The notes under the pieces: model-generated | What the model was told of the DNA's origin: nothing | Seen by the model: only the letters and a program-made list of their open reading frames with translations | The model's database searches: none | NCBI GenBank assembly: GCA_023484045.1 | Contig: JAMDAA010000022.1 | Location: 4,201-68,200, forward strand | Length of the DNA stretch: 64,000 nucleotides | Source of the DNA: Patescibacteria group bacterium | GTDB taxonomy: Bacteria; Patescibacteriota; Microgenomatia; Levybacterales; UBA12049 | Direction of reading: 5' to 3' | Program-made: the position numbers and the translations under genes | Shown: in pieces, positions 30,223-57,892 of the stretch | How positions within the stretch are numbered: position 1 is the stretch's first letter | How the letters are laid out: the number at the start of each line of letters is the position of its first letter

Positions 30223-30240
30223 GGGATTAAAACGGAGATG

Positions 30241-30313
30241 TGAGCTGCCGGGGACTCGAACCCCAAACCTACTCCTTAAGAGGGAGTTGCTCTACCAGTT
30301 GAGCTAGCAGCCC
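30241..30313 (-). tRNA. tRNA-Lys (anticodon CTT)
   Basis: Cloverleaf: acceptor GGGCTGC/GCAGCTC, anticodon stem ACTCC/GGAGT, loop CTCTTAA, T-loop TTCGAGT. No encoded CCA. Confidence 0.85.
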
Positions 30314-44197: not shown

Positions 44198-44304
44198 ACA
44201 TATTCATTGTATATAATTGATAAAAATAGTATGTATAACTCATTTTTATACGAAAAAATGTTGACTATTGACATATAGATTATTTTTTGATACTATCTAA
44301 GCAA

Positions 44305-45516
44305 ATGATTCACTCTTTTACTTGCAAAAACTTTTATTCATTCCCTAAGAAAACAACCATTAGCTTTGTTGTTAATGAAAATGCTCCTGATAATAATGGA
44401 TATCTTAAAACTCCTTCAGGGGTGCGCCTTTCTAAGGCAGAAATTGTCATTGGTTCTAACGCTTCAGGGAAAACCAATCTTCTTAAAATAGTGCCGTTTT
44501 TAAAATGGATTATCCTTGACTCGTTTAACATAAATCCATCAGCACCCATACCGGTACAACCATTTATGTTTAGTGATTTAAAAAACAAACCAACAGAACT
44601 TTCTGTGGAGTTTGAAATTGATGGTAATATCTATCTGTACGAATTTGTTCTGAATAGCAAGAGAATCATATCGGAAAACCTTAAAGTTAAAAATAAAACT
44701 AAGAAACGTGTTACTTATAAAATGCTTTTTTCTCGAAATTGGGACGAAGAAAGCGAAAAATATAACTTTGAAGGCAAAAATTTCGATTTACCAAAAGGGT
44801 TTGAAAATTTACTTCGTTCAAATGCGAGTGTTATTGGTTCTGCTTCGCGATTGAACCATAAAGAAAGTCAAGAAATTGCAAAATATTGGCAACAAGTAGA
44901 GACAAATGTTATTGAAGCTGGTTGGATAGGCGATCATTTATTACTTAATGCGACTCAACAATTGCCAGAGGTATTTAACTTCTATAGCGAAAATGAGTCG
45001 TTAAAGAAGGAAGCTGAAAAGCTATTATCCCGTTTTGACCTGGGTTTAGCAGGATTTGAGATAGAAAAACAAAAACAGGAAAACGGTTTTTTACTTAATA
45101 TAAAGGCTACGCATTTATTGAATGGGCAAAAGCATTATCTTCCTGTTCAATATGAATCTTCGGGTACAAAACAGCTTTTTGTGCTTTTAAAGACAATTCT
45201 GCAGGTTTTAACTAAAGGTGGCGTAGCAATATTGGATGAGTTTGATGTTAATTTGCACCCGGAAATGGTTCTATCGCTTTTTGAATTATTTATTCAACCT
45301 GAAACCAATCCTAAAAATGCCCAAATATTATTTAGCACCCATAGCCACCTAGTCTTAAGCAAGCTAGACAAGTACCAGATAATTCTAACTGAAAAAAATG
45401 ATGATGGTGCAAGTGAATCCTGGCGTTTAGATGAAATGTCTGGAGTTCGTGCAGACGATAATTATTACTCAAAATATATTGCTGGTGCATATGGAGCCAT
45501 CCCAAAAATTAATTAA
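44305..45516 (+). CDS. AAA_21-type ABC/ATPase, AbiLi/RloA-like defence ATPase
   Basis: Walker A GSNASGKTN, Walker B AILDEFDVNLHP, ABC-like SSGTKQL. Promoter-like TTGACA..TACTAT immediately upstream. Confidence 0.7.
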   Translation: MIHSFTCKNFYSFPKKTTISFVVNENAPDNNGYLKTPSGVRLSKAEIVIGSNASGKTNLLKIVPFLKWIILDSFNINPSAPIPVQPFMFSDLKNKPTELSVEFEIDGNIYLYEFVLNSKRIISENLKVKNKTKKRVTYKMLFSRNWDEESEKYNFEGKNFDLPKGFENLLRSNASVIGSASRLNHKESQEIAKYWQQVETNVIEAGWIGDHLLLNATQQLPEVFNFYSENESLKKEAEKLLSRFDLGLAGFEIEKQKQENGFLLNIKATHLLNGQKHYLPVQYESSGTKQLFVLLKTILQVLTKGGVAILDEFDVNLHPEMVLSLFELFIQPETNPKNAQILFSTHSHLVLSKLDKYQIILTEKNDDGASESWRLDEMSGVRADDNYYSKYIAGAYGAIPKIN

Positions 45517-45527
45517 ATGGAAATACT

Positions 45528-46064
45528 ATGTCGAGAACAAATCCTTACAAGAAAAAAAGACGCTCGGCAAACAAGACAATTCTTATTTACAGTGAGGGAT
45601 TACATGAAGAAGTTTTCCTAAAGCACCTAAGAGGTTTATACTCCCAGAACAAAAATGTTGCAATTACTGTCAAAAAAGGTAAAGGCGGAACTGCTGATTC
45701 TCTTGTAATTCAGGCGAATAAAACATTAGGCGCCTTTGATAGAAGAGTCGTGGTATTAGATAACGATAAAAACAAATCCGAAATGCAAAAAGCTAGGCAA
45801 GAAGCAGAAAATAGAAAAATTGAATTATTCGAACATACACCTTGCCTTGAAGCGGTACTATTATCCATATTACGCAAAGGACAAAACTTCAAACAGAAAA
45901 GTTCCAGTTGGTGTAAACAAGAATTTGAATCAAAATATATTGATAGAAAAAAGAGAGGTGAAGTAGACGAATATGTAAAGCTTTTTCCTACGAGTCTACT
46001 GAATAAAGAAATTTCGAAAGTTGCCGAGTTAAAAAGGTTGATTTCTCTTATGCTTGGGGAGTGA
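45528..46064 (+). CDS. RloB/AbiLii-like (DUF4276, TOPRIM-like) partner protein
   Basis: 178 aa. N-terminus KKRRSANKTILIYSEGLHEEVFLKHL fits the RloB pattern (basic stretch plus ILIvcEG..tE). Lies 12 nt after the ATPase. Confidence 0.6.
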   Translation: MSRTNPYKKKRRSANKTILIYSEGLHEEVFLKHLRGLYSQNKNVAITVKKGKGGTADSLVIQANKTLGAFDRRVVVLDNDKNKSEMQKARQEAENRKIELFEHTPCLEAVLLSILRKGQNFKQKSSSWCKQEFESKYIDRKKRGEVDEYVKLFPTSLLNKEISKVAELKRLISLMLGE

Positions 46065-47480: not shown

Positions 47481-47500
47481 CTGGTGAGCCGGACAGGATT
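47481..47500 (-). other. duplicated 3'-end fragment of tRNA-Lys(TTT), T-loop to CCA
   Basis: ctggtgagccggacaggatt is identical to 56109-56128, the 3' end of the intact tRNA-Lys. Confidence 0.7.
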
Positions 47501-47556
47501 GCACTCCGCTAAAGCTTCGAGCAACTAGTTTTCCTGTTCGATATCTTTCTCTAAAG

Positions 47557-47808
47557 CTACATTTCTAGATTCAAAAATCTTTTCTTCATAAATGCGATGC
47601 CTGATCCTGTTTTAAGGTATCGTTCAAATGCCAATGCTTGCCTTTTTGTTTTAAACGCACAATGCCATTCAAGTTGATAATTCAAGTTTGATTTAGTAGA
47701 AAGAACTTTACCTGTCGAGTGTTTTTTTAGACGATTTTTTAAATCAGGGGTATATCCAACATAGTATCTGTTAGTGATGTTATTTCTTAAAATGTAAGTA
47801 TAATACAT
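47557..47808 (-). CDS. small GIY-YIG nuclease-family protein (copy 1)
   Basis: 83 aa. YYTYILRNNITNRYYVGYTPDLKNRLKKH carries the GIY and YIG elements, plus a downstream conserved Arg/Glu. Confidence 0.75.
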   Translation of the reverse strand: MYYTYILRNNITNRYYVGYTPDLKNRLKKHSTGKVLSTKSNLNYQLEWHCAFKTKRQALAFERYLKTGSGIAFMKKRFLNLEM

Positions 47809-47846
47809 TTTAGACAGCTTGCTATCTGTAGCTTTAGCGAAAGATA

Positions 47847-47986
47847 GTGAACGTTTACGAAAAAATTCGAACCTATTTTAAAAATTAATTACGTCTTGCG
47901 TCAGCTCCTCGCTCGTCCGGCTTCGCCGTCCTCGCTTCGTCGCTATTTCGCTTTCGGCGCGGCGCCCCCACCCGCCGCGCCTCCGC
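47847..47986. repeat. inverted repeat A (about 140 bp), partner A' at 54285-54423
   Basis: The reverse complement matches 54285-54423 with at least one mismatch. The GC-rich body contains the T-loop-like aataggttcgaat. Confidence 0.8.
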
Positions 47987-48720
47987 TCATTTTTTGCGCG
48001 CGCGATTTTCGGGAACTTCGTTCCCCTATAATACCACAAACTGAATCGGCCAAAATGGTGGAAATTGGCCGATTCCAAGTACAAAAACTTCCGGTTCCAC
48101 CACTTTTTTGGTTCTCGCCAAGCCAAACGAAAGAACGAACTGAAGATTTTTCCGGCGGTTCCCGCCGGTTTTTTTGTTTCGCCCCTTCCAAACACTTTAC
48201 TATTGTAGAAGAGTACAAGAGTAGAAGATTAAAGTAGAGGTTATCAAATTTCTATCAACCCACCCACCCGACTGAAATTGTTGGCGGCGACCCCATTCAT
48301 CGCGCGCTGGGCGCCCTAGGGGGCGCCTGCGACAACGGTTTTACTTTTCTAAGAGTTCCTACAGCGCGTCCCTCGCCCCGCTGCGGCGGGGCTTGTCTTT
48401 AGTTTTGACTTTTAAGGCTCGCGCGTTCTGGGGTGTCCGCTTTTCGCCCCCGCCTTCTTTATTTGACCCCTTCCTGCTATTCAGGGCTCGGGTTCACGCT
48501 TAAGGAAATAAACTTTAGAACCCTCGCTCCTGATCCCAATGGCTCGCCCCGCGTTTTCTTTCCCTTAAAGATTATCAAGCGGGGCTCGCGTTAGTCGGGA
48601 ACGCTCGTTAAAGTAAGTGGTAACTCGAAGGGTTTTCTGTCGCGTTCCCTCCTTTTTAGCTGGGTGCTATTGAGGGGGCGGGGGCGGCGGAGCCGCCAAC
48701 AACAAAATGAAAAAAAAAGA
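47987..48720 (+). ncRNA. GC-rich ORF-poor region with many stable hairpins; candidate large structured ncRNA (strand uncertain)
   Basis: About 60% GC against a ~35% background. Only overlapping short ORFs on both strands. Hairpins GGGAACuucgGTTCCC, GAATCGGCCAA..TTGGCCGATTC, GGCGCCCuagGGGGCGCC, GCCCCGCugcgGCGGGGC, GGCGGagCCGCC, and a terminator-like CCGGCGGttcCCGCCGG followed by T7. Confidence 0.4.
48152..48176 (+). terminator. intrinsic-terminator-like hairpin inside the GC-rich region
   Basis: CCGGCGG ttc CCGCCGG followed by TTTTTTTG. Confidence 0.45.
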
Positions 48721-48753
48721 TTTTCTTGTCCCATTTTGATACACTGTTAATAT

Positions 48754-49911
48754 ATGGCTGATGATATTCCCCAAGATCAGACACAAACAACGGAGACAAC
48801 AAGCCCAACAGTTCCACCAACTGACCAACCGCCAGTGGAAACTTCACCAGTGCAACCAACATCAGAACAATCATCAACAAATACAGTTTCTTCAGAAACT
48901 CTAAATATTCCTAATCCTGAACCAGTTGCTCCCGCAACTCCCGAACCACAAACACAACCCGCCGAAGCTAAAACAGAAACTCCTGCACAAATAGAAACAC
49001 AACCGCCTGTTTCTCCTCCTGTTTTTGATATTCCGGCATTACATTTTCCGTTCTCCGGTAATTTTCCAGTGACTTTTTCTTGTGGTCAGCAATCAGATAA
49101 CGAAGAAATCAAAAAGAAATTTCAGGAGTGGGGAATTGTTGGCCACAATGGTTTAGATTTTGGATTAACTTCTGGAACCGAAGTTTATCCATGTGATTCT
49201 GGAAAAGTTGTCCAGTCAGGAGATAACGGCGATTTTGGAACATCAATCACTATTCAACATTCGTGGGGACAATCAATTTACGGACATCTTCAAGAAACTA
49301 GAGTCAAAGAAGGCGACGAAATTCAAGTCAACAACGTAATTGGTCTTTCCGGTTCTTCCGGTGCCGCATTTGGTGATCATCTGCATTTTGCCATCAAACC
49401 AAACAATCCTGATTTAAATAATGGTTATCTTGGTTTTATCGACCCTGCGCCTTATTTATCTTTACCATCTCAAAAAGAAGAAACAACCGAAACACCACCA
49501 ATTCAAACCCCACCCGTTGAAGAACAAATGCCGCTGGAAGAAATTAAACCACCGGAACCAGTTATTCATCAAGAAGAGCCGACAATTAACATTGAGCCGG
49601 AAAAACCAGCAGAACAATCCCAAATTCCTCAACCGAGCAATGAAGAAATTCAAAAACAAGTGGATGAAAAACTAAAAACAGAGTTAGATGCCAGAAGATT
49701 AAAAGCTAATCAGGCCAGACAAACAAAGAGAGAAGAAAATTTAATGAAGATTGAAAAACTAATCGAGGAGAAAAAACTAATTAACAATGACGATGTACGA
49801 GAACTTCTTCATGTTTCCCAATCTACAGCCACTAATTACTTAGAGGATTTAGTAAAACGAGGAACAATTAAACTCAATGGCAAGGGTAAAGCAACGATTT
49901 ACAGTTATTAA
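48754..49911 (+). CDS. M23 (LytM-type) peptidase with Pro/Thr-rich N-terminal region and C-terminal winged-helix-like domain
   Basis: HNGLDFGLTSGTEVY...GHLQE...GDHLHFAIKP M23 motifs. N-terminal PT-rich low complexity. C-terminal VRELLHVSQSTATNYLEDLVKRGTI is HTH-like. Confidence 0.75.
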   Translation: MADDIPQDQTQTTETTSPTVPPTDQPPVETSPVQPTSEQSSTNTVSSETLNIPNPEPVAPATPEPQTQPAEAKTETPAQIETQPPVSPPVFDIPALHFPFSGNFPVTFSCGQQSDNEEIKKKFQEWGIVGHNGLDFGLTSGTEVYPCDSGKVVQSGDNGDFGTSITIQHSWGQSIYGHLQETRVKEGDEIQVNNVIGLSGSSGAAFGDHLHFAIKPNNPDLNNGYLGFIDPAPYLSLPSQKEETTETPPIQTPPVEEQMPLEEIKPPEPVIHQEEPTINIEPEKPAEQSQIPQPSNEEIQKQVDEKLKTELDARRLKANQARQTKREENLMKIEKLIEEKKLINNDDVRELLHVSQSTATNYLEDLVKRGTIKLNGKGKATIYSY

Positions 49912-49963
49912 CCCAACATTCAACAACAACAAATATACTCAAGTAATATTTCTATCCAATTAT

Positions 49964-50314
49964 TTATTTTGTTGCTGTGGGTGCCGGATTTGTTGCGGTT
50001 GTTGGTTCAGAGATCGTTTTAGCGACTACTCCGACATTAAACATTTGAGGAAATCTTAATCTGTAAAGGCTCTCCAGAAAATCGGTTCCGGCATAACCTG
50101 CAAGTAAAGATATTCGCCAATCACCATCAGCAATTAATCCTGAAACCACGCCAACAATACCGGAAACCAACATTGTTACCCCAAAATATTGCCAGTGAAT
50201 CTTAAACTCATCAGGGTTTTGAGTTTGTTTTAGTATTCCTACTAATCCGCGAACTAATCCTCCGGCCAGTCCAGTTACTAAATGATAAATTTGAAATTCA
50301 AGTTGTAATTGCAT
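49964..50314 (-). CDS. small two-TM membrane protein (holin-like)
   Basis: 116 aa. Two TM helices and a charged C-terminal tail. Inside the element, near the M23 peptidase. Confidence 0.35.
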   Translation of the reverse strand: MQLQLEFQIYHLVTGLAGGLVRGLVGILKQTQNPDEFKIHWQYFGVTMLVSGIVGVVSGLIADGDWRISLLAGYAGTDFLESLYRLRFPQMFNVGVVAKTISEPTTATNPAPTATK

Positions 50315-50628
50315 TAAGTTTTAGTCACCTCCTTAGATTTTTGTGCTTTTGTACTATTCTGCAAGAGTGCAAACCCACCTTTGCCAAACTTTATTACTTG
50401 ACCAATTTTTGAAATAGTTGAAGTGCTAACTGGAATTTCAGCGGCAATTTCTTCGTATGTTTTGCCTTCCAAAATTAGCTTTGCTATTTTTAGCCTTTGG
50501 GCAAAATCAAGTGTTTTCTCCGGTGAAAACAAGTCTTCGATAAAGATAGTTAAATTCTTTTTGGTTTTGATTTTGAAAAAAGAATTAATAACCAATTGAG
50601 TATCTTTGTTTAGATTTATTTTGTCCAT
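50314..50628 (-). CDS. TrpR-like (YerC/YecD family) DNA-binding protein
   Basis: 104 aa. RLKIAKLILEGKTYEEIAAEIPVSTSTISKIGQVIKFG matches the Trp-repressor-like HTH family. Confidence 0.6.
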   Translation of the reverse strand: MDKINLNKDTQLVINSFFKIKTKKNLTIFIEDLFSPEKTLDFAQRLKIAKLILEGKTYEEIAAEIPVSTSTISKIGQVIKFGKGGFALLQNSTKAQKSKEVTKT

Positions 50629-50629
50629 A

Positions 50630-53542
50630 TTAAACCTTCTTTTTCGCTTTAATTAATAAAACAACTGTAATAAGAATGATAAACGCCATTATTCCGATGA
50701 CTGATATTACTTGTGGATTAAGAAAAGCGTTTGTTTGCTTAACTTGAATGTTTAAATCAAATTCTTTGACATCTCCAGTTAGGTTTACTGTTTGTTCTCC
50801 TTGATAGTTAGCATAAGCAATGTTTATTTTATGTTGACCAGATTCCACATTAGAAAACTGAGCAATTCCGTTTTTATCGGTTGTGGTTTCTTGAACTTTT
50901 GAATGAATAGTAACTTTTGCACCTGGAACAGGTCTGTTTGTCGTATCCACAACCTTAATTTTGACTGTATAGCCATTTTGTTTAACAGCTTGTTTTTCTT
51001 CTTCTGTTTGAGCTGGAACAGTTTTTTGTTCGGTGATCTTAGTTTCTAAATTTCCATTGAATAGACTCTGTAGTGGAGCTGGCAAGTTGTTGTTTATTGA
51101 AAGATAAAATACAGGTTGAGTATATGTGTTTCCTGCACTATCCTTTAGTGCAATTGTACTTTGGTAATGCCCGTCAATTAACGGGAATGGAACAGTAATA
51201 TAAAATCTGGATGACTTTTTGTCGTTTGAACTGTCTTGAATGTTGGACAAAGAATAATCTTGGGTTAAATAGTCAGCATAAGTTTTATCGTCTTTTTGTC
51301 TTTTTAATGTCAGCGTAAGTGTTTGTGGTCCAGACGAAACTTTATCAAAAGTATCGGTCGAATTATTACTATTTGTCTTTATTGAACCCTGATAACTGTC
51401 GACTGCTAATCCTGAGAATGAAGGTGTTCGATTTAAAATACTTATGTTGTAAATTCCTCCGGAATTCACTATCGATACATTTGCAACGGCTAACTCTGAA
51501 ATAGCAGGTGAAGTTTTGTCAATATAAAAATCGGCAGATTGAGAAGTTGAATTAGATTGAGCATCATAAGTAGTAACTGTCCAAGTATGTTTTCCCTCAG
51601 TCAGTTCGGTATTGTTTAAATCTTTAAAGTAAACATGAATTTCGTCGTTTGAACTATCACTATCATTTTCGTTTATGAACTCGATTTTTACAGAGTTGTC
51701 ATCTTTCCATACATAATCGGCTGATCCATTTCCTGAAGTTGGAATACCAGAAGTTGAAAGGCTACGGTTCTTTCCTGAATCTAACGATACAGAATATGAG
51801 GATAAACCACTTCCAGAATCAGAAGACTTTTTGAAAACTAAAGTGGGTTTTGTATCTTCTTTGCTAAAACCCGTTGGAGAAGATAGGGATCCAGCCGTGG
51901 GTGCAGTTGTATCAACTCTAAAATCTGGACTGCCTCCCATGGAAACCCACGATCCGTTACCTGCTGAATTATTAATCCTTGCCTGCCAATGATAGGAAGT
52001 TCCGCTTGTTAACCCGGTAACTGTTACGCTTCCGGTTACGGCTGTTCCCGTAAAAGCGACGGCACTCCCCGTATTTGTGACTGAATTAGTGAAAGCGGTT
52101 CCGTTTGGCTGTATCTCTATTTGAGGAGTAAGGGAATCAGAAGAATTACTTGATGACATGTTAAACTTTAAAATAATTGTTCCTTCGTTTGTATATGCTC
52201 CTGAGGAAATTGCTGTTGTTCCATCTGTTTTATATTGAGCCAATGCGGAAGGTGCCGAGGGCAATATAAACTCATAGACTCCATCATCAGGGGCAGAACC
52301 CTGTGGAACTATTGTTCCGGCAAAATCTGAAGTAAGACTTAAATCCGTACCAGCATTAATTGCCGGGCTAGAAGATGTTAAATGAAAATCTGAACTACTT
52401 CTATTCAAAAATGAAGGTTCTACAAAAGTGCTATGACTATCCCATCCTGTATCTGTTTTCCAGGTTGCGAAATCAACAAATGCGTTATTATATCTAAATT
52501 GACCCTGTGCTGAACCATCTGTGTAGTAAATATTGTAATCAACATCGTTATCGCTCGCTGTATTATTGAGGTCGTCGCTAGCCCTAGTATTATACGCAAA
52601 GACATTATTTCGGATTACTACTCCACTAACAGTGGTTATTGTACTTCCTGGGCCAAATACAAACCCGTGCATATTACCATAACTGGTATTGTTATAAATA
52701 TATGAAACCCCATTCGCTCTTAAATGTTCTTCTACCCATACTCCATTCCAACCCGCTCCATAAGTTATGTTGTACCGAAAAATAAAACCGTTAGAGTTTA
52801 CGTCAAAATGAGCATTGCTCTTATAACCATTGTAAAAAGTGTTCTTTTCAACTAAGGCGTTGATTGTATCTCCCGTATATAAGTTATCACTCCAATCAAG
52901 AAAACCTTGGTTATCATTTAGAGTACTTCCTGTAATTATTGGAGCTGACAAATGGTTAAGCCAAACTCCGATTTGACCAATACTTGTATGATCTAGACCG
53001 TTGTTATAAACATGACTGCCATCTAAGCGAAAACCAGTTGATCGATAACTTGAGCTTTGACCTTCGATTCTAAGTCCAAAAACACCGTTATGATCAATAT
53101 CTGACGAATAAATTTTAAAGTTACTTATTGGGGTAAAATTAGTTGCGTAACTCATCCAAACTCCAGTGTAGTAGTTATTAGTGATCTTCATATTCTGAAG
53201 AGTTATATTTGAAGGTGTGTTCCAGGTTGGTTTTAATCCAAAACCTCTGCCGTACTGTCCGCCTGCTCCGTCAATTTGAAGTCCGTTAAAGGTTATATTA
53301 GATCTGTCATCACAAGATACAACATCATATCTGGCTCCAATTTCCATAGTGTGTGTTGAAGGATTTGCCCCGTCAGAAGCCCAGTAATACACAATATGAG
53401 CAGTGCTGTCATAGTAAAACATTTTTGCGCCTGTTATTGCCGCCAAACTTCCCACAGGTGTAGCCATTACGTTGTCTTCCAGAAGAAGATAAATACCAAT
53501 AGATGCCGTGTAGCTTGCTTTATAAATATTGCCACTTTGCAA
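50630..53542 (-). CDS. about 1000-aa surface protein: right-handed beta-helix (pectate-lyase-like) repeats, Ig/fibronectin-like and carboxypeptidase-regulatory-like domains, C-terminal TM anchor
   Basis: 970-aa ORF from a TTG. N-, S- and G-rich beta-helix repeats (NNVFAYN.., NNTSYGN.., VIRNNVF). C-terminal VISVIGIMAFIILITVVLLIKAKKKV. The true N-terminus with the signal peptide lies upstream in other frames (see 53467-53938). Confidence 0.7.
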   Translation of the reverse strand: MQSGNIYKASYTASIGIYLLLEDNVMATPVGSLAAITGAKMFYYDSTAHIVYYWASDGANPSTHTMEIGARYDVVSCDDRSNITFNGLQIDGAGGQYGRGFGLKPTWNTPSNITLQNMKITNNYYTGVWMSYATNFTPISNFKIYSSDIDHNGVFGLRIEGQSSSYRSTGFRLDGSHVYNNGLDHTSIGQIGVWLNHLSAPIITGSTLNDNQGFLDWSDNLYTGDTINALVEKNTFYNGYKSNAHFDVNSNGFIFRYNITYGAGWNGVWVEEHLRANGVSYIYNNTSYGNMHGFVFGPGSTITTVSGVVIRNNVFAYNTRASDDLNNTASDNDVDYNIYYTDGSAQGQFRYNNAFVDFATWKTDTGWDSHSTFVEPSFLNRSSSDFHLTSSSPAINAGTDLSLTSDFAGTIVPQGSAPDDGVYEFILPSAPSALAQYKTDGTTAISSGAYTNEGTIILKFNMSSSNSSDSLTPQIEIQPNGTAFTNSVTNTGSAVAFTGTAVTGSVTVTGLTSGTSYHWQARINNSAGNGSWVSMGGSPDFRVDTTAPTAGSLSSPTGFSKEDTKPTLVFKKSSDSGSGLSSYSVSLDSGKNRSLSTSGIPTSGNGSADYVWKDDNSVKIEFINENDSDSSNDEIHVYFKDLNNTELTEGKHTWTVTTYDAQSNSTSQSADFYIDKTSPAISELAVANVSIVNSGGIYNISILNRTPSFSGLAVDSYQGSIKTNSNNSTDTFDKVSSGPQTLTLTLKRQKDDKTYADYLTQDYSLSNIQDSSNDKKSSRFYITVPFPLIDGHYQSTIALKDSAGNTYTQPVFYLSINNNLPAPLQSLFNGNLETKITEQKTVPAQTEEEKQAVKQNGYTVKIKVVDTTNRPVPGAKVTIHSKVQETTTDKNGIAQFSNVESGQHKINIAYANYQGEQTVNLTGDVKEFDLNIQVKQTNAFLNPQVISVIGIMAFIILITVVLLIKAKKKV

Positions 53543-53938
53543 ACTCCAACCAGTAACAAGATCGGTCCCTGTGATACGGGTTTGGAAGCTGATGCACCGT
53601 AAGAGTTGTAGGTAATGGGGTTACCTGTGGAACCACCAGTATTTACATACCAAGTTTCTCTCCAAACATCACCTTTCTTTAGTGATACTTGATCTCCAGC
53701 AACAAAACCAAACCCAGCCAGTTTAGCCATCGTTTTAAATGGTCCTGTGCTTCCAGTTGTGTGAGTCTGTTCAAGCCCGTCATAAGAATCATACCCATCA
53801 GTTTGACTAACGTAATAAGTTGCAGCAAAAGCTTTAGTATTTACAACGAAGAATAATGAAACGAATACTAATAGAGAACAAAAAGTTTTTAGGAGAAAAT
53901 TTAGCCGCGGCCTTTTACTCTCTCTCTCTCTCTCTCAT
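53467..53938 (-). other. out-of-frame 5' part of the surface-protein gene: ATG, (GA)9, signal peptide, first beta-helix turns
   Basis: ATG at 53938-53936 is followed by (AG)9 and then an in-frame TAA. The +1 frame encodes SKRPRLNFLLKTFCSLLVFVSLFFVVNTKAFAATYYVSQTDG... continuing into the 87-aa ORF at 53467-53730. A second shift of -1 near 53560-53600 joins this to the 970-aa frame. Confidence 0.55.
53918..53935. repeat. (TC/GA)9 dinucleotide tract at codons 2-7 of the surface-protein gene
   Basis: ctctctctctctctctct on the plus strand. With 9 units the ATG frame stops immediately. With 10 units the ATG would be in frame with the signal peptide. Confidence 0.9.
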
Positions 53939-54120
53939 TTTTGATCCCGAAGTTGGGAGCAATTTGTTTAAACATAACATATTAGATGTGTGAAATTATA
54001 TTTCCCCTACTATTACTATTAAATATAGAAACAATTTCTAGCAAATGCAATAGATAGTTAAGCTTAAAACGTGCCTATTTTTGCTATTGTTTTCTTTTTC
54101 TGTTTTTTGTATATTAAAAA

Positions 54121-54209
54121 TGGACTCAGTTTTGACGGATTGTGTTTTTTAATGGCGCAATCGGACAGATAGGACACAATCCTAACTGAGTCCACCGGTT
54201 GCGCCATTT
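54121..54209. repeat. interleaved inverted repeats, potentially an H-type pseudoknot
   Basis: X TGGACTCAGTT (54121-31) pairs with AACTGAGTCCA (54185-95). Z GGATTGTG (54137-44) pairs with CACAATCC (54175-82). Y TAATGGCGCAA (54150-60) pairs with TTGCGCCATTA (54199-209). The order is X Z Y Z' X' Y'. Confidence 0.5.
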
Positions 54210-54284
54210 AAGTATTAAAAACTATAGGGAAAAAGTTCTTTAAAATTTTTGCGTTTTTTCTTTAGGATTCGAGCTGACAGTTTT

Positions 54285-54423
54285 CGGAGGCGCGGCGGGT
54301 GGAGGCGCCGCGCCGAAAGCGAAATAGCGACGAAGCGAGGACGGCGAAGCCGGACGAGCGAGGAGCTGACGCAAGACGTAATTAATTTTTAAAATAGGTT
54401 CGAATTTTTTCGTAAACGTTCAC
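54285..54423. repeat. inverted repeat A', partner of 47847-47986
   Basis: Reverse complement of A. Contiguous with B'. Confidence 0.8.
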
Positions 54424-54526
54424 CAGTAAAGAAATTGAAGCAGAAGTGGGGGCAGCGCGAGCCGCGCCCCCAATCGCGGCGAGCGCTGCAAAGGGATATT
54501 TTAACGCTGGCCGGAGTTGCCGGTTA
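54421..54526. repeat. inverted repeat B', perfect partner of 56010-56116
   Basis: tcaccagtaaagaaattgaagcagaagtgggggcagcgcgagccgcgcccccaatcgcggcgagcgctgcaaagggatattttaacgctggccggagttgccggtt equals the reverse complement of 56010-56116. Confidence 0.85.
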
Positions 54527-54614
54527 GAATGAAAGGACAGAAGAAAAAACGCAAAAATTAACAAGGTAGAATTTTAAAGAACTTTTTAAGAGTACAAAAG
54601 TACTAAACTAAAGT

Positions 54615-56009
54615 ATGAATAAATACATAGCATATTGCCGAAAATCAACCGACGAGAAAGACAAACAGGTGTTATCTATTGAAGCGCAAATTGCAGAACT
54701 CAAAGAATTTGCTAAACGTGATCATTTAGAAGTTGTTGAATTTATTACCGAAGCCAAAACAGCTAAAATGCCAGGGCGTGAGCAATTTGCGCTAGTCTTA
54801 AAGAAAATTGAAAAAGGAGAAGCCCAAGGCATTATAAGTTGGCACCCAGACCGTTTAGCCAGAAATTCAATAGATGGAGGTAAAGTTATCTATTTATTGG
54901 ATACCGGAAAGTTAATAGATTTGAAATTTCCGTCTTTTTGGTTTGAAAATACTCCCCAAGGAAAATTTATGTTATCCATTGCCTTCGGCCAGTCAAAATA
55001 TTATGTGGATAATTTATCGGAAAATGTAAAGCGTGGTAATCGCCAAAAACTTCGTCGTGGTGAGTGGCCTTCAAAAGCACCATACGGATATATTAATAAT
55101 CCTAAAACCAGAGCCGTTGATGTTGACCCCGAATTATCCAAAGTTGTTAAAAAAGCTTTTCAGCTTTTTTCCGAAGGCAATAAGTCGTTTACGGAAATTT
55201 CAAACTTTATGTTTAAGTTTGGGATGAAGCGGGAAAGTTGTGGGAAACCGATTAAAGTTGATCAAATAAAACGGATGTTATCAAACAAATTTTATGTAGG
55301 AATTTTAAAGTATGCCGATGAATATTATGAAGCTTCCCATAAATGTTTCATCTCCAAACAACTTTTTAATGATGTCCAAAAGCAGGTGGAAAAAATCTTG
55401 CGTCCTAGGCAACACGGCCACGATTTTGCTTTTTCCGGTTTAGCCACTTGTGGAGAGTGCGGCGCCGCAATCACGGCAGAACAACACGTAAAACATTACA
55501 AAAATGGTAAATCCCAAACTTTTATCTATTACCGCTGTACTAAAAAGTTAAAGCCCTGTACACAAAAGTATTTACCAGAAGGTGATTTAGAAGAGCAATT
55601 AAAAAAAGTGGTGGGTGATTGCGGCTTGCACCAGGATTGGGAACCCTATTTTGAAAAATGGATGGCCGAAGATGAGAAAAAAGATCAAGCTAATTCAGAC
55701 ACAGAATTAAGAAGGCTTGGCGAGAACCAAAAGGAAATTGAAACAAAACTTAATCGCTTACTTAATGGTTATTTAGATCAAGTGGTGGAACCGGAAGTTT
55801 ACAAACAAAAGAAAAATGAATTATTTGACGAAAAACTAAAACTTACCGAGCAAATTGCCAAAGTTTCAAAGATTGGTTCGTCTTGGCTCGAACCTATGAG
55901 AGAATTCGTAATTAGCGCCTTGCAGGCGCAAAAAATCGCGCGCGTAAAAAATGAGTGCCATGATTTGGCGATCATGGCAAAAACTGTCGGCTCGAACTAT
56001 TCTTTATTT
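54615..56009 (+). CDS. large serine recombinase (resolvase/invertase catalytic domain plus recombinase and zinc-ribbon-like extension)
   Basis: N-terminus YIAYCRKSTDEKDKQVLSIEAQ with the catalytic Ser in the Y.R.S context. About 465 aa to the start of repeat B. The frame stays open through B and antisense tRNA-Lys to 56276. C-terminal Cys pairs CGECG..CTKK. Confidence 0.8.
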
Positions 56010-56116
56010 AACCGGCAACTCCGGCCAGCGTTAAAATATCCCTTTGCAGCGCTCGCCGCGATTGGGGGCGCGGCTCGCGCTGCCCCCACTTCTGCTTCAA
56101 TTTCTTTACTGGTGAG
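56010..56116. repeat. inverted repeat B (107 bp) abutting and overlapping the tRNA-Lys CCA end
   Basis: Perfect reverse complement of 54421-54526. Contains the strong hairpin GGGGGCGCGgctCGCGCtgCCCCC. Ends in CTGGTGA, shared with the tRNA 3' terminus. Confidence 0.85.
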
Positions 56117-56184
56117 CCGGACAGGATTCGAACCTGTGACCAATTGCTTAAAAGGCAACTGCTCTACCGCTGAGCTACCGGCCC
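56110..56184 (-). tRNA. tRNA-Lys (anticodon TTT) with encoded CCA
   Basis: Acceptor GGGCCGG/CCGGCTC, anticodon stem GTTGC/GCAAT, loop CTTTTAA, T-loop TTCGAAT, 3' ACCA. Confidence 0.85.
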
Positions 56185-56272
56185 GCCCACCACGCAAGCC
56201 GAGCATTGCGAGGCGTTGCGGGCAGGCCCGCTCGCCCCATCTTCACACTCAACTTTTGCAGCTTTTTAAATT

Positions 56273-56524
56273 CTAGTTTTCAAAAATTTTCTTCCAAATC
56301 CAGTTTTAAAATATTTTTCTCTTTTAATCGCCTTTTCTTTATCTAAGCACGCTTCGTAATATATTAGTCTTAAAGGTAATCTGCCTTTTGTTGCTAAGCT
56401 TTTTCTTTTTCTGTGAACTTCTAACCTTTTCTTTAAATCTTCTGTATATCCAGTATAAAGCTTACCGTCTTTTTCACTTTTAAGAACATATGTATAAACA
56501 TTACCTTTTCTCGTGATTATATCA
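56273..56524 (-). pseudogene. GIY-YIG nuclease-family gene (copy 3) lacking a canonical start codon
   Basis: Minus-strand frame encodes ITRKGNVYTYVLKSEKDGKLYTGYTEDLKKRLEVHRK...REKYFKTGFGRKFL with an in-frame TAA immediately upstream and no ATG, GTG or TTG. Not in the ORF track. Lies 88 bp upstream of tRNA-Lys on the same strand. Confidence 0.5.
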
Positions 56525-56699: not shown

Positions 56700-57359
56700 A
56701 TGACAGATATTGGACAAACGTTGCTAGCATCTTTAAATAATGGACTAGCTGCGGTCGTAAGCTTTATTCCTAAATTCTTTGCCGGAGTAATAATATTAAT
56801 ACTCGGCTTTGTTGTCGCGTCGATCGTAAAACAAATCGTAATTCAAATAATAAAAGCGCTAAGAGTCGAGGCCTTACTTAAAAAGTACAGTGTTCCGGAG
56901 GGAAAAGAGGAATTTAACTGGGCGAACATTTTAGCCGAAATCGTCCGATGGTTTATAATCATAATATTTTTGATCCCGACGGCTGACGTTTGGGGACTTC
57001 CCCAAATCGTCACGGTTTTAAACACGTTTTTGCTGTATTTGCCAAACGTGTTCGTCGCGGCGATCATCGGTCTTGTCGGTTTTGTGTTTGCGCAGCTTGC
57101 TTACGATATAATGCTCGCATCGACCAAAAGTATTTCGTCAAACACTTCTAAAACTATTGCGTCCTTCACAAAATGGGCGATAACAGTTTTTGTGATTCTG
57201 GCGATTCTAACACAACTTGGGGTCGCAGCAGATTTAGTCAGAATTTTATTCACCGGATTAGTCGCGATGCTTGCGATCGCTGGCGGTATTGCGTTTGGTT
57301 TGGGCGGAAAAGACTCTGCTAAAAGTGTAATCGAAGAAGTACACAAAAAACTTAAATAA
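56700..57359 (+). CDS. membrane protein with TM-helix repeats (MscS-associated conserved TM helix type)
   Basis: 219 aa, 5-6 TM helices, repeated hydrophobic modules. Strong RBS. Confidence 0.45.
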   Translation: MTDIGQTLLASLNNGLAAVVSFIPKFFAGVIILILGFVVASIVKQIVIQIIKALRVEALLKKYSVPEGKEEFNWANILAEIVRWFIIIIFLIPTADVWGLPQIVTVLNTFLLYLPNVFVAAIIGLVGFVFAQLAYDIMLASTKSISSNTSKTIASFTKWAITVFVILAILTQLGVAADLVRILFTGLVAMLAIAGGIAFGLGGKDSAKSVIEEVHKKLK

Positions 57360-57446
57360 ATTGAACGTATTTAGGTTTTAGGATATAATATACGAACGCC
57401 GCGTTCGTCTAGTGGCGGTAATTAGGTTTTTCCCGAGACAATTTTT

Positions 57447-57520
57447 GGCGCGTTCGTCTAGAGGCCTAGGACAGATGGTTTTCATCCATCAAATCGCGGG
57501 TTCGAATCCCGCACGCGCTA
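57447..57520 (+). tRNA. tRNA-Glu (anticodon TTC)
   Basis: Acceptor GGCGCGT/ACGCGCT, anticodon stem GATGG/CCATC, loop TTTTCAT, T-loop TTCGAAT. The upstream 57399-57411 partially duplicates the 5' end (gcgttcgtctag). Confidence 0.85.
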
Positions 57521-57547
57521 CACTTCGGCAGGCTCAGTGCAAGCAAT

Positions 57548-57838
57548 ATGAATAAGCCTCAGAGTTGGTATCTTTACATGCTTCTTTGCGATCAGAAATC
57601 TTTTTATGTTGGGATTACTCCTAATCCGAAAGAAAGAATAGCCGAACATAGAAATAAAGAGTGCATCGCGACGAAAGAATTTTCTGATTTTAAAATGGTT
57701 TATTGTGAAAAGTATTTGAATAAATTTGAAGCAGTAAAAAGAGAAAAACAAATTAAAGGTTGGAGTAGAACAAAGAAGCAAATGCTTATTGAAGGAAAAT
57801 TAGGGATAAATACAAGCACTGAGTTTGTCGAAGTGTAA
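57548..57838 (+). CDS. small GIY-YIG nuclease-family protein (copy 2)
   Basis: 96 aa. WYLYMLLCDQKSFYVGITPNPKERIAEH, with a downstream conserved Arg and Glu. Starts 27 nt after tRNA-Glu. Confidence 0.75.
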   Translation: MNKPQSWYLYMLLCDQKSFYVGITPNPKERIAEHRNKECIATKEFSDFKMVYCEKYLNKFEAVKREKQIKGWSRTKKQMLIEGKLGINTSTEFVEV

Positions 57839-57874
57839 AGAGGATGAGAAGTTTACTCTGAGCGAAGCCGAAGA

Positions 57875-57892
57875 GAATCCCGCACGCGCTAC
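57875..57892 (+). other. duplicated 3'-end fragment of tRNA-Glu (T-loop to 3' end)
   Basis: gaatcccgcacgcgctac is identical to 57504-57521 of the intact tRNA. Preceded by a CTGAGCGAAGCCGAAG motif. Confidence 0.7.

Follow-up and report, generated by a model that had tools for sequence, protein, structure and literature searches.

We analyzed a 64,000-nt stretch of contig JAMDAA010000022.1 from a Patescibacteria group bacterium (hereafter, the window), and we found that positions 47847-56115 are probably an integrated mobile element. More precisely, we think (with a probability of roughly 85%) that these ~8.27 kb are moved by a large serine recombinase via conservative site-specific recombination. 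The target is the 3' end of a gene for tRNA-Lys(UUU). The element's cargo is accessory, and the element belongs to a large and apparently undescribed family in the Microgenomates (Patescibacteria). Integration, the boundaries of the element, and its membership in the family are well supported. Recognition of the T loop of the tRNA, damping of the recombinase gene (rec), and the role of a second attachment site are what we infer. The features that define the element are as follows (positions are those of the window).

47847-47850, plus strand: left GTGA core, the attL crossover region (common to attL, attR, and the internal site)
47847-47985, plus strand: A arm (139-nt inverted repeat of 54285-54423, 99% identity)
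54285-54526, minus strand: attP*, an inverted and intact B·A junction (rcA 54285-54423, core TCAC 54420-54423, rcB 54420-54526)
54615-56276, plus strand: large serine recombinase open reading frame (ORF) (Pfam, PHROGs, PDB match, alignment A2)
55932-55979, minus strand: terminator-like hairpin (55979-55956) with its T-tract (patch P, 55932-55955), in the sense of transcription from tRNA-Lys into the element
56009-56115, plus strand: B arm, coinciding with the 3' end of the rec coding sequence (107-nt inverted repeat of 54420-54526, 100% identity)
56110-56184, minus strand: tRNA-Lys(UUU), the target gene (ARAGORN; Rfam, 75.5 bits)

We call the arm at the left end A and the arm at the right end B. 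The junction that would form if the element circularized is B·A, and the internal block, which is the reverse complement of that junction with a 4-nt overlap (TCAC/GTGA), is rcA·rcB. An earlier note on this DNA had described this arrangement, and we found all of the sequence features that it described, to within 1 nt. Inverted repeats of such length and identity cannot be due to chance. The integrated segment is 47847-56111 (8,265 bp), plus the shared GTGA core, with a GIY-YIG mini-cassette on its left and the tRNA-Lys(UUU) gene on its right. GTGA or its complement TCAC is common to three sites (47847-47850, 54420-54423, and 56112-56115), and at the right end it coincides with positions 71-74 of tRNA-Lys (the acceptor end, the discriminator, and the first C of CCA). 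In the A arm, TTCGAAC lies 16 nt from the core and mimics the T loop, with a GC hairpin further in (47958-47981); in the internal block, the mimic of the T loop and of CCA (aGGTTCGAAT…TCACCAg) is at 54397-54426. Terminator-like hairpins point inward from both ends of the element. These would stop read-through from the host, including tRNA transcription. The T-tract of the hairpin near the right end is repeated, as its reverse complement, in a 24-nt patch at 47986-48009.

We have several pieces of evidence that this segment was inserted. First, the earlier note had placed the insertion at the 3' end of tRNA-Lys, with crossover within GTGA, and the empty site (attB) that this predicts does exist. 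We searched a metagenome collection for the predicted 35-mer, GCTTTAGCGAAAGATA-GTGA-GCCGGACAGGATTCG (…AAAGATA-GTGA-GCCGGACAGG…), and found it exactly in two contigs. (We refer to related loci and contigs by numbers, and these are L090 and L091.) They are from a related organism and have the same neighboring genes as the window. L091 is part of a 99-kb contig with the tRNA-Lys fragment, the GIY-YIG gene, …AAAGATAGTGA, tRNA-Lys(UUU), and an MscS-like gene that is homologous to window 56700-57359, and it has no insert. On the left, the window and L091 align up to GTGA, after which the window has the A arm and L091 has the tRNA. On the right, the alignment runs from GTGA through the tRNA. Thus the comparison with related tRNA-Lys loci that the note had suggested turned up uninterrupted loci whose flanks are conserved on both sides. 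The note had also taken the GIY-YIG cassette to be what preceded the insertion, which L091 bears out.

The empty site also shows what the B arm contributes. The end of the tRNA-Lys gene reads …GGCTCAC/TATC when empty and …GGCTCAC/CAG when occupied (the slash marks the end of the shared sequence). In other words, the native gene stops at …CAC followed by T and does not encode CCA; the remaining CA comes from the B arm, which terminates in TGGTGA and provides C75-A76 of tRNA-Lys. So the tRNA mimicry and the supply of CCA that had been proposed are real. In general, integration would put the B arm in place of whatever had followed the tRNA, and the B arm here would add the encoded CCA and, further in, a terminator-like hairpin.

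Second, there are sister elements at other sites. In L005, the order tRNA-Lys–MscS–tRNA-Glu is retained, and the element is in tRNA-Glu; its tRNA-Lys is unoccupied and ends in GGCTCAC/TGT. L007, which is the complete Beckwithbacteria genome CP011210, has a sister element at tRNA-Glu(CUC). The cargo of L007, which lies between that locus's own A and rcA arms, is the same and in the same order, with 79% identity over 821 nt in the GC-rich region and 75%, 81%, and 83% identity for the M23 peptidase, a small protein, and a TrpR-like gene. We thus have occupied and empty sites with a precise junction, and the same element at other sites and in other genomes. Together, the empty site, L005, and L007 imply a discrete mobile unit with cargo, and its bounds are those that the earlier note gave.

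Could the mobile unit be larger? Two more features lie just to the left.

47481-47500, minus strand: displaced tRNA-Lys 3'-end fragment (20-nt direct repeat, 100% identical to 56109-56128)
47536-47846, minus strand: GIY-YIG mini-cassette (gene 47557-47808), the left (X) half of the attachment site (PF01541; 26-nt terminal inverted repeats, I3)

A unit from 47481 to 56128, with the GIY-YIG gene included, would be bounded by a perfect 20-nt direct repeat, which is the classic signature of a tRNA island, and GIY-YIG genes often adjoin the target tRNAs in related loci. But L091, which also has the fragment of the tRNA-Lys 3' end, has a GIY-YIG cassette with its own 17-nt repeat and no recombinase element. 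Conversely, a GIY-YIG gene is missing from the left side of the A arm in both L007 and L005. The window itself has the same mini-cassette standing alone at tRNA-Glu, and of the 20 identical nt, the final three (CAG) derive from the B arm. We consider the larger unit to be most improbable. Instead, the fragment at 47481-47500 is a direct repeat of an older GIY-YIG cassette, and it is context outside the recombinase element.

We then examined the recombinase. By its predicted domains and catalytic residues, it is a large serine recombinase, as the earlier note had claimed, and not a small resolvase. It has the Resolvase domain (PF00239, residues 5-151, 2e-20), the Recombinase domain (PF07508, residues 172-260), and the zinc ribbon (PF13408, Zn_ribbon_recom, residues 273-332). 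In a 16-sequence alignment, R9, K10, S11, and T12 are invariant. It matches the phage integrase family phrog_95 (1.7e-70), and its nearest relative with a solved structure is the SPbeta integrase (1e-14, with an alignment over residues 4-407). It is also not a small invertase like Hin or Gin: ~500 residues are conserved, with the domains of large serine recombinases, and a match to phrog_125 ("DNA invertase") is restricted to the catalytic part. Matches in NCBIfam, to CcrA/B/C and XisF, are weak (for CcrB, 91 bits against an equivalog cutoff of 900).

The conserved part of the recombinase stops at the crossover (…SISLLV, near 56111), and the last 55 codons of the ORF are antisense tRNA-Lys and its flank. 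Similarly, an alignment of homologs is conserved through the B arm (…GAASAAPTS.SIS.LV) and then continues as the antisense translation of whichever tRNA follows (…GFEP…). Most homologs end in such antisense-tRNA peptides (G[FILV]EP). About 7 of 120 clusters of homologs end instead in …LVN.[YF]E.IRT[FHY]FK, which is the translation of B·A. The tail encoded by the window's own B·A would be …LLVNVYEKNSNLF followed by a stop codon. So integration via B·A would remove the natural C-terminus of rec (…LLVNVYEKNSNLF and the stop), along with the hairpin/T-tract terminator of the A arm. It would also fuse rec to the antisense strand of the tRNA, converging on tRNA transcription. From the sequence alone, we infer that rec would be damped after integration.

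The family is large. Homologs of the recombinase number in the thousands, with 60-91% identity. Among the matches listed, with one genome per species, at least 567 of 600 stretches that match the pattern encode a relative of the recombinase. All 80 of the loci that we retrieved are from metagenome-assembled genomes of Microgenomates/Patescibacteria (a few have evidently wrong automatic labels). From self-comparison and tRNA finding in 58 loci, the layout of the family is the X half-site, the crossover, the A arm, the cargo (the S module), rcA·rcB, ~90-200 nt, rec reading into the B arm, the crossover again, and the tRNA in antisense. The rcB/B inverted repeat is present in 53 of the 58 loci, and 40 of those have an antisense tRNA at the B end. 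The elements are 2.4-10.6 kb in size, with cargo modules that range from 583 nt (L039, with one 75-aa ORF) to 8.7 kb. The targets are ten tRNA species: Lys, Glu, Arg, Val, Tyr, Leu, Pro, Gln, Asp, and Gly.

We looked for this family elsewhere. A search of 2.9 million IMG/VR contigs with a profile of the recombinase gave no member of the family, only one outlier with 39% identity. We found nothing relevant in the literature on serine recombinases or integrases in Patescibacteria (the candidate phyla radiation, or CPR) or on those with T-loop targets, and no paper that describes this family, its twin attP, or its leader RNA (see below). Exact look-ups of the proteins encoded in the window gave only short contigs from the Logan assembly, identical to the window, and no record for the recombinase or the GIY-YIG protein.

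Since the genome is assembled from a metagenome, we considered whether the inverted repeats might be an artifact (a chimeric fold-back or a collapsed repeat). Many related contigs break exactly at these repeats, and one Logan contig (L002) runs out after 30 nt of the A arm. Such breaks are also expected of real repeats. The same architecture, with locus-specific sequences, recurs in over 30 independent assemblies from different assemblers, including the complete genome CP011210, and the junction between X and A recurs in an independent Logan assembly. An artifact, which the earlier note had listed as something that would undo its proposal, is hardly credible.

The internal inverted junction is conserved as well. 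The note had described it in this copy of the element; we find that it is real and that it is conserved across the family. Both pairs of inverted repeats are present in 28 related loci (or 30 if we count two that our filter missed). The two copies of an arm share 95-100% identity in nearly every locus, while each arm varies from one locus to another, which implies concerted evolution. Judging from these comparisons, the internal inverted attP is an obligatory hallmark of the family that evolves in concert with the ends of the element. Around it and upstream of it are three more features.

54108-54208, plus strand: conserved leader (-10-like TATATT at 54110-54115; pseudoknotted motif at 54122-54208)
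54230-54262, plus strand: IRl, the left bracket of the internal site (pairs with IRr; inverted repeats I11 and I15)
54541-54587, plus strand: IRr, the right bracket of the internal site, just 5' of the rec start codon

The IRl–rcA·rcB–IRr block is closed by a 33-nt inverted repeat (54230-54262 with 54541-54587), and in the standard layout it sits between the leader motif and rec. Conservation across the family extends over about 180 nt upstream of rcA, and IRl is the most conserved stretch of the leader alignment (A3, with 31 loci). In this alignment, pairing reaches 99% in helices 1 and 3, and changes on both sides are seen in 22 of 30 pairs. This covariation far exceeds that of shuffled and slid controls. 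A covariance model of the leader has one match in the window and matches 35 related loci at over 60 bits (37 matches, counting the window). Wherever rec adjoins the tRNA, the matching leader is upstream of rec and co-oriented with it; L092 has the sole strong match in the inverted orientation. In L086, the leader motif is 35 nt upstream of the rec ATG. The leader motif matches no family in Rfam 15; its hits there are at chance level (E of 0.02-5). Five loci (L023, L021, L019, L024, and L029) have weak matches to the leader model that cover the IRl part only, and L089 has a different hairpin at the position of the leader, so the pseudoknot appears to be replaced or divergent in some clades. As for the internal block itself, we considered that rcA·rcB might be a tRNA-like RNA, but when read directly it has no T-stem or acceptor pairing.

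By sequence, both copies of attP appear to lie inside the rec transcription unit, with B·A at its 3' end and attP* in its 5' leader. The free form of the element would most simply be a circle with two identical inverted attP sites. Another potential target for these sites, tRNA-Lys(CUU) at window 30240-30313, has the same GTGA core and a T-loop spacing of 12 nt; it is unoccupied and lies 24 kb from the element. In other genomes, relatives of the element occupy tRNA-Lys(CUU).

How might the recombinase recognize its target? For 29 loci, we built an alignment of attL, attR, and the internal site, and we scored the T-loop spacing in 25 loci. After the core, the A arm reads ACGTTTACGAAAAAATTCGAAC, and its TTCGAAC hexamer is the antisense of the tRNA T loop. 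In the A arm, 16-17 nt separate TTCGAAC from the core; in the tRNA arm, the distance is 12 nt. This shift of 4-5 bp was scored in 23 of the 25 loci. (The other two are mis-hits of the regular expression, and by eye the shift is 4 bp.) In serine integrases, as studied for the LI integrase, the motif bound by the zinc-ribbon domain is 5 bp nearer to the crossover in attB than in attP (PMC3783163). As far as the alignments can tell, the spacing in the tRNA and the A arm matches this published rule, with the tRNA as attB.

The core co-varies with the acceptor end and discriminator of the tRNA. It is GTGA at Lys, Glu, and Val tRNAs, GTGC at Arg, Tyr, and Leu, GTCG at Pro, and GCTG or GTTG at Gln. 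(On the tRNA strand, these are TCAC, GCAC, CGAC, and CAGC or CAAC.) Recombinases that are 90-94% identical over the first 460 residues are found at Arg, Tyr, and two Leu tRNAs, all with the same core. Other close recombinases are found at Lys and at Glu tRNAs, again with the same core. The X arms carry no information beyond the core. Because of the spacing shift, the co-variation of the core, the breadth of targets within a clade, and the lack of conservation in X, we propose that the target is the T arm plus the 4-nt core. The recombinase would read the invariant T arm of the tRNA as one half-site of attB. The core would be an address that restricts each clade of elements to tRNAs with the same 3' end, and the other half-site (X) would not be sequence-specific. 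We also tried to assign the B arm to the "proximal" or "distal" type of half-site, but its spacing is intermediate, and the crossover dinucleotide within GTGA cannot be fixed.

Some relatives show that the two modules of the element, rec and cargo, do rearrange: both of their relative orientations are found among L088, L089, and L092. Junctions in which rec reads into B·A are found in L086, L088, L089, and L092. The order in L088 is rcB–IRr–rec→B·A–S–leader–IRl, which fits a circle with two inverted attP sites, or else an element that integrated through its other site. In L092 and L089, rec reads into B·A and the leader that follows is reversed, which places the rec module in inverted orientation with respect to the cargo module. 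One of the two, L089, has a junction between rcA and the host at its end and hence is integrated. We considered L088 and L092 as examples of the circular form, but these are short contigs that end inside repeats and are ambiguous. Finally, L087 (6467-11542) is a composite, with tRNA-Lys, a reversed recombinase module, B·A, one cargo module, rcA·rcB, and a second recombinase module; that is, two opposite recombinase modules share one cargo module. The B arm of its second module is joined to a different A-like arm, beside a type I restriction-modification system.

Given these rearrangements, we considered whether the locus might be a resident DNA-inversion (phase-variation) system that merely neighbors a tRNA. 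Such a system would flip the 6.3 kb of cargo (from A to rcA) and rec (from rcB to B), and switching would control the expression of the surface beta-helix protein and the peptidase. The element does have two non-nested pairs of inverted repeats with opposite core polarity (GTGA…TCAC…GTGA), so each module could invert, and both relative orientations of rec and cargo do occur among relatives. Also, one of the cargo genes encodes a surface protein and has a dinucleotide repeat at the beginning. However, an exact empty site exists, and L007 has the same cargo at a different tRNA. Relatives are found at ten tRNA species and always exactly at the tRNA 3' end, and minimal relatives have almost no cargo to regulate. 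Moreover, among 35 loci that match the leader model strongly, a leader next to a tRNA-adjacent rec is upstream of that gene and co-oriented with it, so flipped modules are the less common state. A resident inversion system is therefore unlikely. Inversion may well coexist with mobility, but it cannot replace it.

Is the element a degraded prophage, or an integrative conjugative or mobilizable element? The earlier note had suggested a phage-like or ICE-like (integrative and conjugative) nature, which depends on the cargo.

47986-48753, no strand assigned: GC-rich structured non-coding region (GC profile, folding, comparison with L007)
48754-49911, plus strand: M23 peptidase, with a weak C-terminal winged-helix match (PF01551, 3e-21; 75% identical to its L007 ortholog)
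49964-50314, minus strand: small protein of unknown function (sub-threshold PF16083 only; 81% identical to its L007 counterpart)
50314-50628, minus strand: YerC/YecD TrpR-related DNA-binding protein (TIGR02531, 52.3 bits, above the cutoff; PF01371; 83% identical to L007)
50630-53935, minus strand: beta-helix/Ig-like surface protein (PF13229, Beta_helix; PF19077, Big_13; PF13620, CarboxypepD_reg)

Domain searches agree with the note about the recombinase, the M23 peptidase, the TrpR-like regulator, and the beta-helix surface protein (970 aa). The label "holin-like" did not survive: the small protein has only a sub-threshold match to PF16083 (E = 0.0065) and no match in PHROGs or NCBIfam. The recombinase does match a phage integrase family (phrog_95), M23 peptidases are known from phage lysis and tail proteins, and, in domain type only, the beta-helix protein is reminiscent of tailspike folds. 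But the six ORFs encode no capsid, portal, terminase, tail, replication, relaxase, or type-IV secretion protein (according to Pfam, PHROGs, and NCBIfam), and the beta-helix protein has no match in PHROGs. Except for the 39%-identical outlier, the family is absent from the 2.9 million contigs of IMG/VR, and relatives are as small as 2.4 kb. As for conjugation in particular, the six ORFs include no relaxase, coupling protein, or type-IV secretion protein, while an oriT may be present unrecognized in the sequence. With no structural, packaging, or conjugation genes and no relatives in IMG/VR, the suggestion of a phage-like or ICE-like element fails, and we consider a degraded prophage or conjugative element to be very unlikely.

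The gene for the beta-helix protein seems to have a broken layout. In a three-frame translation, the 970-aa body (50630-53542) and the part that encodes the signal peptide (~53467-53880) are in different frames. The gene starts with ATG and (GA)9, or (CT)9 on the plus strand, at 53918-53935. The ATG is out of frame with the signal peptide, which is out of frame with the body. Adding one GA unit would put the ATG in frame with the signal peptide. This layout could reflect a slipped-strand phase switch, a pseudogene, or a sequencing error.

The GC-rich region (47986-48753) contains no convincing ORF. Its GC content stands out (0.486 at 48001-49000, versus ~0.37 in the remaining window), and it folds more stably than shuffled controls (z-scores of -4.3 for the plus strand and -6.5 for the minus strand). 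These ~770 nt form a chain of hairpins, with compensatory changes between relatives (L007 2299-3094; L005 5020-5300). We found no Rfam family for it: scans of the window at the gathering threshold, and of its non-coding parts at E up to 5, gave only tRNAs and chance-level matches (Rfam 15; E of 0.02-5). The first 24 nt of the region (CTCATTTTTTGCGCGCGCGATTTT) are the reverse complement of 55932-55955. A hairpin at 48044-48075 contains CCAAAATGGTG, the sequence nearest to the core in the B arms of L005 and L007; the loop of this hairpin is inverted in L005. Two patches within 48085-48124, of 21 and 19 nt, exactly match the complementary strand of recombinase codons within 55714-55800; they are in another reading frame than rec, and there is no similarity between the patches. 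These patches may come from antisense pairing or may be conversion tracts. We considered that 47986-48124 might be a degenerate, inverted 3' end of rec, but the identity is limited to the three exact patches of 19-24 nt, in a different reading frame.

There are several caveats to our view that this is a mobile element moved by its recombinase. First, RecA acting on the 107-139-bp repeats, rather than the recombinase, could drive the inversion of modules. Second, L088 and L092, whose contigs end inside repeats, also fit inversion isomers of integrated elements, so the circle is a putative form. Third, attP* evidently has not recombined with the nearby tRNA-Lys(CUU), so it may be an inactive site. 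Fourth, B·A is not a symmetric, canonical attP: the spacing in the B arm is between the values for the A arm and the tRNA arm. The left half of attB is not conserved, whereas canonical serine integrases bind two similar half-sites. Fifth, we did not recognize a recombination directionality factor (RDF), and the minimal relatives have room for just one 75-aa ORF. Finally, the beta-helix gene in the cargo seems to be frame-shifted, and every claim about expression is a reading of sequence only.

Taken jointly, recognition of the T arm, a self-limiting switch, single-strand folding, and a sensor in the leader would amount to a new mode of serine-recombinase element. We offer this combination tentatively and would sooner bet against it than for it. 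The T arm with an exchangeable 4-nt core would let one clade of recombinases colonize many tRNA genes. Integration via either attP, or inversion of rec between attP* and attR, would rewire the expression of rec, and this self-limiting switch would need no separate directionality factor. A single-stranded copy of the element could fold into a perfect 242-bp duplex attP, as in CTX phage, which could suit organisms that import single-stranded DNA. And the pseudoknotted leader would be a sensor that decides when the recombinase is made.

We compared the element to known systems. Phage-type large serine integrases (from Listeria A118, or LI; phiC31; Bxb1; and SprA of SPbeta) have the same set of domains, Resolvase, Recombinase, and Zn-ribbon with a predicted coiled coil. 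Like the element in the window, they have a short crossover core and an attP beside the recombinase gene, and a recognition motif that is further from the center in attP than in attB (by 4-5 bp for the hexamer here) has been described for the LI integrase as well (PMC3783163). Serine integrases are "not known for targeting tRNA genes" (4.9%, versus 44.5% for tyrosine integrases), and a 2020 survey, which had 14 candidate cases of tRNA-targeting serine integrases out of 297, called for proof (PMC7192596). The element here differs from the phage-type integrases in its distant sequence (1e-14 to the SPbeta integrase), its tRNA target, and its one conserved half-site of attB. Also, its attP is inside the rec ORF, a second inverted attP is always present, and we recognized no phage genes and no RDF.

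Tn4451 (TnpX), Tn5397 (TndX), and SCCmec (CcrAB/CcrC) are small cargo elements that move as circles by means of a large serine recombinase. They have the recombinase at one end and no phage or conjugation functions, and their targets are rlmH or GA dinucleotides. To our knowledge, they have no internal inverted joint and no tRNA mimicry. The window's element appears to work like these small transposons and cassettes and differs in its target, its internal inverted joint, and its mimicry of tRNA.

The tycheposons of Prochlorococcus are defined by a tyrosine recombinase specific to their lineage (474 of 501), together with a replication module, and their integrases cluster by tRNA, with one cluster per tRNA (10.1101/2020.12.28.424599). 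They resemble the window's element in that they are cargo elements with several tRNA landing sites, in small streamlined genomes without plasmids or conjugation, and in having the recombinase at the end of the element beside the tRNA. But the element in the window is not a tycheposon. Its recombinase is of the serine type, its genes include none for a primase, helicase, or polymerase, and a single clade is found at several tRNAs.

The Hin invertase of Salmonella is small, acts on 26-bp sites, and uses a Fis-dependent enhancer, and FLP is a tyrosine recombinase on a replicating plasmid (yeast 2-micron). In both of these systems, as here, the recombinase gene is bracketed by its own sites in inverted orientation, two unique segments lie between inverted repeats, and both relative orientations occur (here, they appear among relatives, by sequence). 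We know of neither system integrating into tRNA genes. In SSV1, a tyrosine recombinase has its attP within the integrase gene, and integration splits the gene in two. The element in the window likewise has its attachment site within the recombinase ORF, and integration alters the gene product. The difference is that just the last ~10 codons are swapped, for antisense-tRNA codons.

Patescibacteria have tiny genomes and few recognized mobile elements. This family may be a main route by which genes for the cell surface and cell wall move between their lineages. It also explains many breaks beside tRNA genes in Patescibacteria assemblies. More broadly, we have a family of serine recombinases that is dedicated to tRNA 3' ends, even though serine integrases are regarded as avoiding tRNA genes. 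The T-loop hexamer, with its 4-5 bp shift and the 4-nt core, bears on how serine integrases distinguish attP from attB, and such a recognition scheme would be relevant to retargeting serine integrases for genome engineering. The obligatory second attP and the covarying leader RNA are not accounted for by current models of serine-integrase elements.

We also made some observations about the neighborhood of the element. The GIY-YIG mini-cassettes look like an independent class of tRNA-targeting mini-elements. Besides the one at tRNA-Lys, the window has another at tRNA-Glu.

57548-57838, plus strand: second GIY-YIG gene, of the tRNA-Glu cassette (PF01541)

These cassettes have one gene of 83-96 aa and ~26-nt terminal inverted repeats, are located at tRNA 3' ends, and are flanked by a 17-18-nt duplication of the end of the tRNA (window 47481-47846 and 57504-57892). 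For tRNA-Glu, the 18-nt repeat is 57504-57521 and 57875-57892, and the displaced downstream copy retains the encoded CCA. For the tRNA-Lys cassette, it is ambiguous whether CCA is retained (the relative L091 reads TCACAG there). Similar cassettes are beside the target tRNAs in L007, L010, L014, L015, and L016. A third GIY-YIG-like ORF, on the 5' side of tRNA-Lys (56276-56500), has no ATG, GTG, or TTG start and is absent from L091. Near tRNA-Glu, there is also a 17-nt partial duplicate of its 5' end (57400-57416), 49 nt upstream of the gene. Lastly, just upstream of the left flank of the element, at 44287-46064, are genes for an AAA_15/AAA_21 ATPase and an RloB-like protein, which we noticed via L001. 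By their Pfam names, these are a pair of the OLD/abortive-infection type.

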